The position numbers were made by a program, and so were the translations under genes. Source: a virus (Duplodnaviria > Caudoviricetes). Taken from it: DNA of 64,000 bases. The notes under the pieces are model-generated. The model was given only the letters and a program-made list of their open reading frames with translations, ran no database searches and was not told where the DNA came from. Positions 52,816-59,955 of this stretch are shown here, piece after piece (positions within the stretch are counted from its first letter, which is position 1; each line of letters opens with the position of its first letter). The stretch is from IMG/VR virus record IMGVR_UViG_3300014205_007777, positions 5,476 through 69,475 of that record; one strand, written 5' to 3'.

Positions 52816-53118
52816 TTATCTGCCGTAATTAGGCCCATATTTTTTACGCAGAAACTCAGGGTCAGTTTGCTGTTTGATGATATTCTCAAGTAGTTTATCT
52901 ACTTCATAAGCAATAGGTAGCATCTGTCTTAATTTAGTCCGCAATTCGGGATAGTCCCTGAGTGGGAAACCTTCGGCGATGTCAACCGCGGTCCGGATAT
53001 TCCAGCTATTATTAAGTTTGAGTATCTTTTTAGCATCCGCTTCTGCGTCAGTGTTGGATGTTTCTCTCAGGTTAATTGCTCCACTTGTTTTATGTGGATA
53101 TAACGGTTGTTTCGTCAT
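52816..53118 (-). CDS. YPH-tagged protein (MTKQPLYPHK)
   Basis: Tag; SD GAGGT. Confidence 0.7.
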   Translation of the reverse strand: MTKQPLYPHKTSGAINLRETSNTDAEADAKKILKLNNSWNIRTAVDIAEGFPLRDYPELRTKLRQMLPIAYEVDKLLENIIKQQTDPEFLRKKYGPNYGR

Positions 53119-53135
53119 AATATTACCTCACTTAT

Positions 53136-53867
53136 TTAAATTTTAAACCGAGACCCCCGCTCCGGTAACGGATACCAGTCTGGATGAGCCATATATTCCG
53201 CCCCGGTTATACCGTAGTGATTTATTGCTCTCTCGATATCGTTTTTAGGCGTACCTCTTGCCAGAGATGCAGTATTTTCCTCTGGCAACTCTAATAATCC
53301 CAGATATTCCAAATACGGTGAGTTCTCCATATTTACCTCTATAACCAGGTCCCCTTCAGGTAATATCTGGTAACCTAATTGCTGTGTGATTAAAGCGACA
53401 TATAGAATACAGTTTACCGGAGTATTGAAGGGTTTGGTGAAGGTATAGGCAGTTTTTACCGCCGTGTTCCACGGCCATCCGGGGAACCATGAAGGGACAG
53501 GCGGTCCTTCCCATGGATACAGCGGAAGCCAGGAGTCTAAAAGATAGTTCCAGGCTGTGGAAAAATTTTCCCCCATATTATAGGTAGAACGTCCATAGTC
53601 AGCGATGGCATTCAATATATCTTGGGAGGTAATGTTCTGTGCCGCTTTTATTCTATAGACATGAGATTGAGGGTAGATGTCATAACGTGTTACGGCCGTG
53701 CCTTTACCGATACTTTCCGTGATGATACGGTTTTGCGGGTCAACAAAAATTCCCCAGTGAAAGGTTTTTGAGCCTTGGAGTCGGCATATCTCCTGAGTCC
53801 ACCACACGCCGGGCGGGTTACCGAAAAGATCGCCGGGTTTTAAATCATTTAGTGTGATAGTATCCAC
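53136..53867 (-). CDS. Permuted papain-like (NlpC/P60, YiiX-like) enzyme
   Basis: LKPGDLF...FHWGIFV (His first) ...Y...NCILYV (Cys later). Confidence 0.7.
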   Translation of the reverse strand: MDTITLNDLKPGDLFGNPPGVWWTQEICRLQGSKTFHWGIFVDPQNRIITESIGKGTAVTRYDIYPQSHVYRIKAAQNITSQDILNAIADYGRSTYNMGENFSTAWNYLLDSWLPLYPWEGPPVPSWFPGWPWNTAVKTAYTFTKPFNTPVNCILYVALITQQLGYQILPEGDLVIEVNMENSPYLEYLGLLELPEENTASLARGTPKNDIERAINHYGITGAEYMAHPDWYPLPERGSRFKI

Positions 53868-53872
53868 GTCTT

Positions 53873-54526
53873 TTATCCCTTATCTAAATTCTTTAATATC
53901 TCACTGTCTTTTTCCTGGAGATATCCCGTCAGTTCCCCTAAGACTTGACCGTATTTCATTTTATTACAGGTAGCTTTCTCCGCGACTTCGGTCATGGTCT
54001 TAATCCATTTCTCGGGAGTAGTGTTCTGATCGTCAAGTAAAGGTTGGAGTTTTTCGGTTACCTTAGCACCGTCGCATTCATCTTTTTCAGCGATCTTCAC
54101 GAACTCAACGGCAGCCGCGGCTATGTGACATTCAGAACAATTTTCATATGCTTCTTCAGGTGTCATTTCGGTGGTGGGTTTTTCTCCGGCTATTGCTTCT
54201 GCCGCTGCAAGTGATGAAGGTGATTTTGGTGTGTCTTGTGGTGAAGGTGTGTTTTGTGCGCGTTCCTCCTCCTCTTTCAGTAAATCCTCAAGTCCTTCAT
54301 TAGTATCCGTAGTGGATGTAATTCTATCTTTTAGTGTCACAGCTCCCTCCTTGCATAATTCCTTACAATTTTCTTTATCTGATACGCATTTCTTGGCGAT
54401 ATCGACGACTAACTTATGTTCCTCTTCGGTCTTCGTTGAATCGGTTAATAACATCGCTTTTTTAATAAGCCCTTTTTCGAGGGCGGCACTTGCTTCCTCA
54501 ATTCTTTTTGTAGCTCCAGACATCAA
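53873..54526 (-). CDS. Hypothetical helical protein with Cys pairs
   Basis: 217-aa ORF; CKELC, CSECH. Confidence 0.65.
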   Translation of the reverse strand: MMSGATKRIEEASAALEKGLIKKAMLLTDSTKTEEEHKLVVDIAKKCVSDKENCKELCKEGAVTLKDRITSTTDTNEGLEDLLKEEEERAQNTPSPQDTPKSPSSLAAAEAIAGEKPTTEMTPEEAYENCSECHIAAAAVEFVKIAEKDECDGAKVTEKLQPLLDDQNTTPEKWIKTMTEVAEKATCNKMKYGQVLGELTGYLQEKDSEILKNLDKG

Positions 54527-54537
54527 TCACTCCTTTC

Positions 54538-54957
54538 TTATTCATTATACGCCGATGCGTGTTGTTTAGGTGTTAATCCTATATATTCCGAACTTTTCGG
54601 ATTCAGTACGAATTTTCCGTCATTACCCAGGTTGATGATTATATTCTTGGTTTCATATTCTACCCGGTATATCTCCTCTTCTTCACCGGGATGAGCATAA
54701 AAGTAAACGGCATCTTTCATTCTATCACACATCCATTCACCTTCCGCATCACCGTATCTTTTCTTAAATTCAGTAAGTACCTTATTCCAGCCTAGTTTCG
54801 GGGATATCTTTAAAAAATTAGCCGTGTCATCAAGGATATGTTCATTATTGAGTTCGGTATACTCAAAATCTAATACCTTCCATGCAACGGTTTCACCGAC
54901 AGTTCCTATCCTGAAACCAGTACGGTAAGCGGTATGGGGATAGAGCGCCTGGGACAT
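54538..54957 (-). CDS. YPH-tagged protein (MSQALYPHT)
   Basis: Tag variant. Confidence 0.7.
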   Translation of the reverse strand: MSQALYPHTAYRTGFRIGTVGETVAWKVLDFEYTELNNEHILDDTANFLKISPKLGWNKVLTEFKKRYGDAEGEWMCDRMKDAVYFYAHPGEEEEIYRVEYETKNIIINLGNDGKFVLNPKSSEYIGLTPKQHASAYNE

Positions 54958-55232
54958 TAATCTACCTTCGTCGGCAGACCGAAAAATCTACCGACTTTAT
55001 TCTTGATATTACCGAATTTTCTAGCGGCTGCCTCCGCCTTTTCCCCGCCGAGAATCTTAGCTATTTTAGGCTCTATTAAATTAGCATCCAGTCCCCCGGG
55101 CCATAATATATTTAAGACATGGGGAAGCGGCGGTCCTTTACCGGGCGGTGTAGGAGCTAAATTGTTAAAGATATTTGATAGTCCTCCGTTTGAAACATTA
55201 ATCTTGTGCGGATATAAGGGTTGTTTAGACAT
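54957..55232 (-). CDS. YPH-tagged protein also carrying the GPPLP..NI.WP module
   Basis: MSKQPLYPHK...GKGPPLPHVLNILWPG. Confidence 0.7.
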   Translation of the reverse strand: MSKQPLYPHKINVSNGGLSNIFNNLAPTPPGKGPPLPHVLNILWPGGLDANLIEPKIAKILGGEKAEAAARKFGNIKNKVGRFFGLPTKVD

Positions 55233-58429: not shown

Positions 58430-58433
58430 AGGG

Positions 58434-58619
58434 TTACCTCCGGCATTTCGTTTTTACTTTTGACCACGCTTCTTTCACAGGTAGAGACCTGCGGTTTTCT
58501 TTTCGCATAATATCGAAGGCAAGACACATCACGGCACTGCGCTCAGATCTAAAGTCTCCGCATTGTATTTTACCCTGTTCTAAATCCTGTAATACTTGCT
58601 GGCAGTGCTCACTTGGCAT
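58434..58619 (-). CDS. Small hypothetical protein
   Basis: ORF track; 61 aa. Confidence 0.5.
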   Translation of the reverse strand: MPSEHCQQVLQDLEQGKIQCGDFRSERSAVMCLAFDIMRKENRRSLPVKEAWSKVKTKCRR

Positions 58620-58620
58620 A

Positions 58621-59076
58621 TTAAGACCTCCAATTTTGGGCGAATTCCTTGAAGTTTTCCGGTTCTATCATATAGATAGCATACGATGAATTTTCTTTTA
58701 AGGTCGGTAAATCCAACACGACATATCTTTGAATTGTGCCTCTCCCTTGTTTCCCAATCTTAGGAATATCCCTACGTACTGCGAAATATGCTTGTCCGTT
58801 TGGTTTTAATATCTTTCGTATGTTCTCAATTATAGACCCTTGCTCTTCCTCTGTAACTACATTCAAAACATAGATACAAGTAATAGTATCGAATTTACCC
58901 TCTGGCATTTGAGGTCTGTAATACGGATCATAACACTCCATACCAAACCAGCAACCCCTCCCGGAGCCAAAATCAAATGCTCGGCCTTTGATATAGTTAT
59001 TATCATGAAGCCACTTTAAAGGTTCTGGTGGCTCTTTCCGGGATATAGCGGTTTGATAACCAGTCGGGAATTCCAT
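58621..59076 (-). CDS. Class I SAM-dependent methyltransferase with C-terminal NFKEFAQNWRS tag
   Basis: AFDFGSGRG, YDPYY, FDTITCIYVLNVV; start moved to ATG 59076. Confidence 0.8.
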   Translation of the reverse strand: MEFPTGYQTAISRKEPPEPLKWLHDNNYIKGRAFDFGSGRGCWFGMECYDPYYRPQMPEGKFDTITCIYVLNVVTEEEQGSIIENIRKILKPNGQAYFAVRRDIPKIGKQGRGTIQRYVVLDLPTLKENSSYAIYMIEPENFKEFAQNWRS

Positions 59077-59077
59077 T

Positions 59078-59653
59078 TTACCTCCAATTCTCCGCAAACT
59101 CTTTAAAATTAGTCGTTAAATCGGGGTATTCATCAAGTACTTTCCTCGGTACGTTTTTACCTTCTCTTAGGGCATTGATAATAAAGGGAAGGTGTGCCCT
59201 TTCTAAATTACGTGGTATGTAAATAAACTCGTGCGGGTCTCCGTAAGTCATAAGCTCATCTGGATAGACATGTTTTGAGTAGATTATATACTTACCACCG
59301 GGTATATTAAATTCGCCGTGCTCAGAAACGTACTTTTGAGATTCACTGACGTAGGAGCCCGGTATAATATCACCGACATCACTGGCACGGTAGACTGTTA
59401 TCAATTTACCTTGTTTTATATACGGTATCAAATATAGGGAGTTCATTATTCCTGTCGAATGTGCCCATCCTTTACCTAGTACTTCATTCAATCTGTCGTC
59501 GTCGTAATTAGCTAGGTCCGCTAGAGTCTCATACTCATCACGTCGCCAGTTAAATACCATCTTCGGTGTCTTTGAAGATCCTCCGGGAGGAACAGGGAAT
59601 TCCCAGTTTCGAAATTCCTCTTTAGTCATCTGCCACGGTTCTTTCATCTCCAA
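59078..59653 (-). CDS. Polyvalent-protein-type domain (ADP-ribosyltransferase-like) with C-terminal NFKEFAENWR tag
   Basis: KEPWQMTKEEF; ITVYRA...PGSYVSES.KY...HG...SKHVYPDEL...GDPHEFIY. Confidence 0.55.
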   Translation of the reverse strand: MEMKEPWQMTKEEFRNWEFPVPPGGSSKTPKMVFNWRRDEYETLADLANYDDDRLNEVLGKGWAHSTGIMNSLYLIPYIKQGKLITVYRASDVGDIIPGSYVSESQKYVSEHGEFNIPGGKYIIYSKHVYPDELMTYGDPHEFIYIPRNLERAHLPFIINALREGKNVPRKVLDEYPDLTTNFKEFAENWR

Positions 59654-59955
59654 TTCTCCGCAAACTCTTTGAAATTCTCTACCTCCGCGGCACCGTTTTC
59701 CAAGAATTTGGTTTCCTCGGGATCCAGTGTCTCAATCAATCTTAAAAGTTCGCCAATATGAACTCGTTCTTCATTCGATATACTACGCAGTACCTTTATA
59801 ACTAAAGGATTATCCGTAGCATTTGAGTGTGTCACATATAGGCTCGCGGCGTCTTCCTCTGCGGCTAAATCTAGTCTTAATGCTTTAACAAGGTCGTCTT
59901 TACTCATGGGGTTAGTCTCTTTTATACCAGGAAACGGGTCAGTAAAGTTAGGCAT
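59644..59955 (-). CDS. Ferritin-like (rubrerythrin/encapsulin-cargo-type) protein with C-terminal NFKEFAENWR tag
   Basis: ALRLDLAAEEDAASLY...VLRSISNEERVHIGE di-iron motifs. Confidence 0.85.
   Translation of the reverse strand: MPNFTDPFPGIKETNPMSKDDLVKALRLDLAAEEDAASLYVTHSNATDNPLVIKVLRSISNEERVHIGELLRLIETLDPEETKFLENGAAEVENFKEFAENWR

Follow-up and report, generated by a model that had tools for sequence, protein, structure and literature searches.

Two short terminal peptides mark separately encoded effector-like and cargo-like proteins in an operon of a virus-like element

Why should unrelated proteins, encoded side by side in a virus-like element, begin or end with the same few residues? The question is raised by an operon in the IMG/VR virus record IMGVR_UViG_3300014205_007777 (Duplodnaviria; Caudoviricetes). 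We analyzed bases 5476-69475 of this 69,475-bp record; the window is this whole stretch of 64,000 nucleotides, and coordinates refer to it unless said otherwise. The operon comprises 15 head-to-tail open reading frames (ORFs) on the minus strand, from 59955 to 52816, and a preliminary description likened it to a polyvalent protein split into individually tagged genes. Five of its genes are of enzyme type, namely an encapsulated ferritin (EncFtn), an ADP-ribosyltransferase (ART)-fold-like protein, a methyltransferase, an ArdC-N/zincin protein and a Peptidase_C92-like (C92) enzyme; the other ten encode small proteins. We read the operon as an arsenal addressed by short peptides and destined for the virus particle, functionally a split polyvalent protein, and give this reading a probability of roughly 0.55, as the pattern matches that of the T4 internal proteins and of encapsulin cargo operons.

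The first of the two peptides stands at the N-terminus. This N-tag, M-x-K-(K/Q/E)-(E)-P-L-Y-P-H, starts nine proteins where about 0.02 would be expected by chance according to our estimate. Six belong to the operon and are the small YPH-tagged proteins already noticed in the preliminary description, which start with the K-(Q/E)-P-L-Y-P-H type. The other three are encoded by consecutive small genes on the plus strand at a second locus (44168-44893; 83, 53 and 98 aa), and similar tagged pairs occur in the IMG/VR records L009 and L010. Over the nine copies Leu is written with five codons, Tyr and His are written with both of theirs, and each Pro position takes three or four codons, all four being used overall; this free synonymous variation points to selection on the peptide. 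A role as Sec, Tat or lipoprotein signal was ruled out, as the tag has neither a hydrophobic stretch nor a Cys, and a likeness between YPH(V/I)P and the YPxL late-domain motifs of eukaryotes was considered and set aside as speculation.

The second peptide, the C-tag NFKEFA(E/Q)NWR, ends the first three proteins of the operon: EncFtn and two enzymes unrelated to it, the ART-like protein and the methyltransferase. In the DNA, the EncFtn and ART-like copies are identical at 28 of 30 nucleotides, and the methyltransferase copy has several synonymous changes. The Trp-Arg codons (TGGAGG or TGGAGA) double as the Shine-Dalgarno (SD) site of the next gene, which accounts for at most two residues. The spacing F-x-x-F/Y-x-x-x-W-R/K would bring the aromatic residues together on one side of a helix. 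A search of IMG/VR with the exact degenerate DNA pattern of the C-tag gave no match. With nine N-tagged and three C-tagged proteins, and further ones in relatives, the element thus has what characterizes the capsid-targeting sequence (CTS) of T4, a short peptide conserved at the termini of unrelated proteins within one virus. Both tags are very probably modular address or interaction peptides that act at the protein level.

A third module, GPPLPxx[LM]xIxWP, is invariant in six proteins: the 91-aa protein of the operon, three small proteins of related operons, and two proteins of a putative structural cluster, where it lies at the N-termini of the products of 20017-20457 and 20467-20790, beside a giant protein with Ig repeats. 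No other sequence link between the operon and the presumed particle genes was found.

The most telling evidence on the C-tag comes from the first gene of the operon (59644-59955, minus strand), which encodes a 103-aa protein ending in ENFKEFAENWR (tag codons at about 59647-59676). The preliminary description called it ferritin-like, and this can now be narrowed down to an encapsulated ferritin: besides the Pfam family Rubrerythrin, its best solved relative is the EncFtn domain of P. furiosus (5n5e, E 2.8e-12, residues 12-94), and further PDB matches include 2e0z, in which the same domain is fused to the encapsulin shell, as well as M. xanthus EncC (7s8t) and EncB. Like Family 1 encapsulin cargo, the protein has the two-helix half-ferritin with the Glu/ExxH/Tyr residues, but it lacks a C-terminal cargo-loading peptide (CLP) of the (T/S)(I/V)GSL(K/R) type; the published consensus of the Family 1 peptide is SDGSLGIGSLKRS (PMC8346489). 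Among about 100 homologues, 59 carry a Pro/Ala-rich linker that ends in such a CLP (…TIGSLK, VGSLR or VGDLT). At six of eight loci of this kind that were read, a gene for 262-276 aa follows directly downstream, and the one checked, in L041, encodes a Linocin_M18 shell (PF04454, 7e-72).

The operon EncFtn belongs to a clade of 18 members (103-105 aa, 65-80% identity) that have neither linker nor CLP; genes from two syntenic metagenome operons are among them. Within this clade the ferroxidase residues E33, E62/E63, H66 and Y40 are invariant, and NFxxFxxxW(R/K) directly abuts the ferritin core, at the position of the CLP. The 18 C-tags vary in sequence and keep their spacing. In a quick maximum-likelihood tree of the 88-residue core, calculated with the tails excluded, a CLP-free group is split from the CLP group with SH-aLRT 90, and all tagged sequences fall on the CLP-free side, which consists of the 18 sequences with the NFW-type tag, eight with a KFPxL-type tail and five others. 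As the tree is unrooted, it does not give the direction of the swap between CLP and tag. That the tag takes the place of the CLP is comparative evidence for the C-tag as a shell-addressing peptide. Flp cargo has been reported to need its shell to keep iron soluble (PMC8346489). Given this dependence, an EncFtn whose new peptide is common to two unrelated neighbours is, judging from the sequences, best explained as addressed to a different shell.

The second CLP-free group of EncFtn (P0070, P0071, P0079, P0090, P0100 and L014 10001-10321) ends in (N/K)KFP(K/D)L… and could be a sister lineage that uses another address peptide. In L014 its EncFtn gene lies beside genes for a type III polyketide synthase (PKS), an acyl carrier protein (ACP) and UbiA that are like those of the present element, and P0071 is found on a 70-kb contig labelled Dehalococcoidales.

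Which proteins share the C-tag with EncFtn? The second gene (59078-59647, minus strand), whose ATG overlaps the EncFtn stop codon (ATGA), encodes a protein of 189 aa that ends in TNFKEFAENWR. Its AlphaFold2 (AF2) model has a pLDDT of 93 and shows the C-tag as a helix (residues 183-190). The matches of this model to known structures are individually weak (Foldseek E 0.37 or worse, VIA Z at most 4.1), and ART-fold proteins fill about 20 of the top 42 VIA rows, with alignments to residues ~80-153; among them are Tpt1, Arr, Scabin, the diphtheria, LT and pertussis toxins, ParT, RES toxins and Vis. PDB-sequence profile searches with the domain gave nothing useful. In an alignment of 26 homologues R89, S103-E104-S105 and H141-E142 are invariant or nearly so; they follow the order R-S-E and are at most a putative catalytic triad. 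As ART folds dominate the match list although each match is weak, we tentatively call the protein ART-fold-like, in line with the preliminary description, and treat catalysis as unproven. Its relatives end at …YPDL, just before the position of the tag, and have no C-tag.

The third gene (58621-59076, minus strand; 151 aa from its ATG), ending in the C-tag ENFKEFAQNWRS, matches Pfam Methyltransf_11/12/23/25 (Methyltransf_11 above the cut-off), phrog_24759 (8.5e-7) and PDB 5doo (E 0.004). The S-adenosylmethionine (SAM) methyltransferase of the preliminary description is thus a generic class-I SAM enzyme; a DPPY-type DNA-methylase motif was not found in it, and it is not of the DNA N6-adenine (N6A) methylase type.

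Two further enzymes were correctly anticipated by that description. The ArdC-like protein (56951-58429, minus strand) consists of an N-terminal extension of about 170 aa, an ArdC-N single-stranded-DNA-binding domain (PF08401, 1.8e-9, above the cut-off; phrog_7245, anti-restriction) and a zincin part with an HExxH motif (IHETGHY, at about residue 411) and weak matches to the metallo-protease family phrog_87 (1.2e-4) and to M78 (0.029); its phage relatives are 32-36% identical. ArdC of IncW plasmids likewise combines ArdC-N and an HExxH zincin in one protein (PMC5512222, PMC6222260), whereas the protein described here has the additional N-terminal extension of 170 aa and belongs to a virus-like element, and the version in the contig L095 carries the N-tag and a zinc ribbon. 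The permuted papain-like enzyme (53136-53867, minus strand) belongs to the Peptidase_C92/NlpC-P60 superfamily. Its H37 (in FHWG) precedes C153 (in VNC), both being invariant in 20 homologues, which amounts to a circular permutation. It reaches TM 0.70-0.71 to Peptidase_C92 clusters of the atlas and matches the cysteine peptidase 3kw0 (E 0.015, profile positions 6-155), and its look-alike clusters are mostly viral. A C-terminal extension of 45 aa (53136-53270, …HPDWYPLPERGSRFKI) is lacking in all 19 homologues.

Do these proteins correspond to the domains of polyvalent proteins? The ART-like profile was searched against 1.84 billion representative proteins and matched 881 of them; 14 of the best 50 are 1,169-4,769 aa long and contain the domain internally. 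Three of these long proteins were scanned and all three are of polyvalent type: P0162 with ART-PolyVal (PF18760), P0159 with ddrB-ParB (PF18763) and a glucosaminidase, and P0157 with SLT. The ART-like domain can therefore be regarded as a polyvalent-protein module that lacks a Pfam model, and the fused versions whose existence the preliminary description had proposed to look for do exist for the ART-like domain, the one to which this search was applied. Polyvalent proteins have ArdC-N and MPTase as their main hubs (PMC5512222). The likeness to these proteins includes ArdC-N with a zincin, an ART-fold domain, a methyltransferase and, in relatives, GNAT, all encoded together and plausibly acting simultaneously early in invasion. 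On the other hand, polyvalent proteins fuse 2-15 effector domains, whereas the operon has 15 separate ORFs and fuses ArdC-N and zincin only; ART-PolyVal is of the H-Y-D/E type and the ART-like protein R-S-E-like; and the operon methyltransferase is not an N6A DNA methylase. The text of Iyer et al. (PMC5512222) contains neither 'ferritin' nor 'papain-like' nor 'NlpC', and EncFtn and C92 are not among the domains and peptidase superfamilies it describes. The earlier likening of the operon to a polyvalent protein thus holds for ArdC-N/zincin and the ART-like domain, to which relatives add the GNAT of the contig L011, and fails for EncFtn, C92, the non-N6A methyltransferase and the R-S-E-like triad.

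Related loci reveal constant tags on changing cargo. Two metagenome contigs, L011 and L012, have a syntenic operon. It encodes, in this order, an EncFtn carrying the C-tag, two proteins of 179 and 63 aa, an ArdC of 584 aa, small tagged proteins, a GNAT with the N-tag (PF00583, 2e-7), a tagged 109-aa HExxH protein, C92 and the 82-aa gene that also follows the operon described here. The 179-aa protein (L011 3074-3613) shares with the ART-like protein at 59078-59647 the first ~25 and last ~35 residues together with the C-tag, and differs in the core. This resembles domain swapping within a constant frame; the new core has no family match, and a ParB-like core read by eye was dropped, being unsupported by Pfam, PHROGs and PDB. 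In L013 an unrelated 102-aa protein after EncFtn ends in NPDFQKFSKNWR. Tagged genes are likewise present in the IMG/VR records L002/L003, L009 and L010, and a match in the IMG/VR record L008 proved to be chance. Homologues more remote from the C92 gene (L004-L007) or from the ART-like gene are untagged, which suggests that the tags are additions to older protein families.

Among contigs of species genomes the N-tag pattern gave 18 matches, and only two are real, both in contigs of Dehalococcoidales metagenome-assembled genomes (MAGs). L097 has five consecutive N-tagged genes, and L095 carries a doubled N-tag directly on a protein with ArdC-N, zinc ribbon and zincin. In both, the tagged genes are followed by conserved genes for 82 and 72 aa and an integrase-like gene. 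The match in L106, a Dehalococcoidia MAG, has no tagged ORF, and the remaining ones are chance. As the true matches are restricted to these two contigs, the host is probably a member of the Dehalococcoidales, to judge from sequence comparison. Dehalococcoidales are bacteria important for dechlorination in groundwater and landfill. Two DNA sequencing runs, from landfill and groundwater, contain the entire stretch and are possibly its source samples, which is weak evidence in favour of such a host; no RNA sequencing run is listed as containing it. The element marks an unstudied virus-like lineage of Dehalococcoidales in which no structural gene is recognisable.

What kind of element carries the operon? 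According to IMG/VR the record has direct terminal repeats. Its two ends share an array of tandem repeats of 33 nt, GGTAGAGAAATTGGCGCACCTTTAGTTGAAAAA, by which they overlap and which extends from 63880-64000 of the window into bases 1-160 of the genome and is adjoined at the junction by a gene for a DnaC-like loader. This arrangement indicates a complete circle or a terminally redundant genome, and the repeats are probably iterons of a replication origin that also cause the apparent terminal repeat. Pfam and PHROGs recognise a beta-helix spike-like protein, an Ig-repeat protein, a clamp loader, methylases, an IS605-type transposase and lipid-synthesis genes (UbiA, type III PKS). They recognise no capsid, portal or terminase, and the large putative structural ORFs matched nothing. 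The Pfam models of encapsulin and of the HK97 capsid (PF04454 and PF05065) have no match in the 69-kb genome at E ≤ 10, and a search of the element for a shell gene with a custom profile built from 38 encapsulins (hmmsearch, hhalign) was likewise negative, a result that does not exclude a very divergent shell. A capsid candidate of 254 aa (17454-18218) has no relatives in IMG/VR or in three related records; AF2 without an alignment gave an unusable model (pLDDT 33), and the ESM Atlas holds no model of it and only unnamed viral clusters, its look-alikes being mostly viral. Since Dehalococcoidia appear to host unconventional viruses without hallmark genes (bioRxiv 10.64898/2026.09.15.751708), the shell may be something other than an icosahedral capsid.

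How would such an arsenal work? In our proposal the operon is a conserved set of separately encoded effectors and cargo, each marked by one of two address peptides. The C-tag, xNF(K)xF(A)xxW(R/K), would form a short amphipathic helix with F/F/W on one face, like the encapsulin CLP or the T4 CTS, and would dock its three carriers (EncFtn, ART-fold enzyme, methyltransferase) either to the inner face of a shell that the element builds or to the assembly core of this shell, which is most likely the virion. The N-tag K-(Q/E)-P-L-Y-P-H would address a second set of small, faster-changing proteins, in relatives also GNAT and ArdC. Packaged in this way, the proteins could enter the next host with the DNA and act at once, as has been proposed for fused polyvalent proteins. 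There the ArdC-N/zincin protein may counter restriction, and the ART-fold enzyme, the methyltransferase, GNAT and the C92 amidase may modify host targets. The destination in the virion, the delivery to the next cell and the anti-defence roles are what we infer.

Two known systems provide the precedents. The T4 CTS is shared by diverse injected proteins, some of them anti-restriction proteins, that are otherwise unrelated (PMC3012670). The internal proteins IPI, IPII and IPIII and Alt, with their N-terminal CTS, combine a constant short tag with fast-changing, separately encoded cargo, as does the operon. The present system differs in having no sequence similarity to them, no T4-like head genes and two tags, one N-terminal and one C-terminal; a head protease and a scaffold were not identified in the element. 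Family 1 encapsulin systems (PMC8346489; 5n5e, 2e0z, 7s8t) contain a homologous EncFtn and, as in EncB/C/D of M. xanthus, a C-terminal peptide common to several cargos of one operon. Here, by contrast, NFKEFAENWR replaces the linker and …GSLK, there is no recognisable Linocin_M18/HK97-fold shell gene, and EncFtn shares its tag with an ART-fold enzyme and a methyltransferase rather than with iron or redox cargo. Addressing separate effectors by a shared peptide is therefore not new in principle, as T4 shows. The suggestion of the preliminary description that the virus tags its proteins instead of fusing them gains from tags that are real and modular, from the CLP swap and from the tags on GNAT and ArdC in relatives; its novelty is what it loses.

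Several points weigh against a destination in the virus particle. The proposed destination has no named receptor, as no capsid, portal, terminase or encapsulin-like shell was identified. The viral nature of the element rests only on the IMG/VR classification, the terminal repeat and the spike-like and Ig-like genes, no hallmark genes having been recognised. EncFtn, C92 and a non-DNA methyltransferase lie outside the polyvalent-protein repertoire described by Iyer et al. The promoter resembles a common sigma-70 promoter, and nothing in the sequence indicates late expression. Some of the conservation of the C-tag might stem from constraints on the DNA, considering that its Trp-Arg codons serve as SD site and that the EncFtn and ART-like copies differ at only two of 30 nucleotides.

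These points leave room for other explanations. The operon could be a common accessory or anti-defence unit with products that act freely inside the infected cell, the termini serving as chaperone or adaptor peptides, as a degron or as recognition sites of the zincin or C92. Mere expression in the cell can suffice for ArdC-type proteins to work, and the sigma-70-like promoter, the two peptidases in the operon and the lack of a detected shell gene agree with this explanation. We consider it rather unlikely, because it leaves unexplained why a tag sits exactly at the CLP position of cellular EncFtn and why constant tags and changing cargo recur as in T4, and because EncFtn without a shell reportedly cannot keep mineralised iron soluble (PMC8346489). 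The shell might instead lie within the cell: the tags could address a protein shell, or a membrane made by the prenyl-polyketide lipid pathway, forming a nanocompartment for iron or redox chemistry or enzyme sequestration in a strict anaerobe. From its invariant E33, ExxH and Y40, EncFtn appears catalytically intact; the element encodes UbiA and a type III PKS, and the EncFtn gene of L014 lies beside PKS, ACP and UbiA genes; ideas of a procapsid as reactor have also been raised (PMC13669383). Sequestration, however, makes little sense for the ArdC-N/zincin protein, the ART-fold enzyme and GNAT, which are typical effectors of early invasion, and here, too, no shell gene was recognised, so that we hold an intracellular compartment to be quite improbable.

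Alternatively, the conserved termini might have no peptide function and be by-products at the DNA level, such as homology arms for cassette exchange or translational coupling. The overlap of the Trp-Arg codons with the next SD site and the near-identical EncFtn and ART-like tags would fit, as would a tag-like remnant: in L011 an untagged 137-aa ORF (8749-9162) ends in …FPHVTQKKTVLYPHKG immediately upstream of a gene starting MAKQPLYPH, which suggests recombination of cassettes at tagged N-termini. Against this, the N-tag codons vary freely at synonymous sites, the 18 EncFtn C-tags vary but keep their spacing, and the SD site covers at most the last two codons, which makes an origin at the DNA level very improbable. 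We give equally little credence to the idea that the element is plasmid-like or conjugative and not a virus, its terminal peptides being translocation signals for a secretion or transfer apparatus, as is the case for ArdC and for the primases transferred along with conjugative DNA. Conjugative plasmids are where ArdC is best known (PMC5512222), and iterons with a DnaC-like loader at the circle junction and the missing viral hallmark genes are compatible with such an element. But no matches to type IV secretion system, relaxase or coupling proteins were obtained among the large ORFs tested, whereas the element encodes beta-helix spike and Ig-repeat proteins, is classed as a virus with terminal repeats by IMG/VR, and has a papain-like enzyme and a capsid candidate whose look-alike clusters are mostly viral.

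If the tags are indeed loading signals, they would offer ready-made addresses of about ten residues by which any protein might be brought into a new kind of particle, and a modular tag system would do the job of giant polyvalent proteins outside T4-like phages, too. The proposal that viral capsids carry encapsulin-type enzymatic cargo would also become testable (PMC13669383). A bolder version, which we regard as doubtful, holds that two orthogonal peptide 'zip codes' load a changeable arsenal, including an active ferroxidase of encapsulin type, into the particle of a new Dehalococcoidales virus lineage that is non-tailed or unrecognisable. The virion would then be both delivery vehicle and encapsulin-like nanoreactor, with a shell that maybe does not have the HK97 fold. 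If true, the zip-code particle would naturally connect the assembly of viruses with the loading of encapsulin cargo.

The remaining features concern the layout of the operon and its small proteins. Intergenic gaps range from -20 to +17 nt, nearly all 15 ORFs have GGAGG-type SD sites, each has its own start and stop, and a terminator scan found no minus-strand terminator-like site within the operon. The single promoter of the preliminary description (59992-60020, minus strand), read from the sequence as TTGACA-17-TAATCT and followed by AGGAGGG and the ATG of the first gene, is plausible and unproven: its -35 element is perfect, its -10 element matches at three of six positions, and a consensus scan did not list the site. 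No RNA family of Rfam was found in the region.

The ten small proteins (all on the minus strand) received no family assignment from Pfam, PHROGs and further domain searches. A Cys-rich protein of 61 aa (58434-58619) between the C-tagged genes and ArdC matches no Pfam or PHROG family and has orthologues at the corresponding place of L011 (63 aa) and of L013 (75 aa). Next come a Zn-ribbon-like protein of 58 aa (56782-56958, MSKQPLYPH), a protein of 149 aa (56328-56777, MTKKEPLYPH) and one of 100 aa (56024-56326, MAKKEPMYPH), whose ATG is preceded by the SD site GGAGG and which has a tagged orthologue at L011 6392-6820. Two untagged proteins follow, of 114 aa (55676-56020; orthologues L011 6844-7179 and L013 4856-5110) and 143 aa (55244-55675; orthologue L011 8302-8739). 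The 91-aa protein (54957-55232) joins the N-tag MSKQPLYPH to the module GPPLPxx[LM]xIxWP, and a protein of 139 aa (54538-54957) has the variant tag MSQALYPH. An acidic Cys-containing protein of 217 aa (53873-54526; orthologues L002 894-1532 and L011 10120-10758) again has no Pfam or PHROG match. The last gene of the operon (52816-53118) encodes 100 aa with the tag MTKQPLYPH; its orthologue in L002 (3809-4099) has the variant VKNVKYPH.

Sequence reading of the minus strand places a separate unit downstream (52381-52804), with a promoter-like TTGACA-17/18-TATATA, the 82-aa gene (52441-52689) and a terminator of strong hairpin and T-run at about 52381-52418. It stays attached to the operon, with orthologues in L002, L011, L095 and L097. 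Small basic proteins of 82 aa (52441-52689) and 74 aa (52025-52249) follow the operon in every relative seen, and in the Dehalococcoidales MAG contigs the integrase-like gene comes after the two small basic genes. In L002 an inserted LAGLIDADG-like gene of the homing-endonuclease type (3042-3755) separates the last tagged operon gene from the 82-aa gene.

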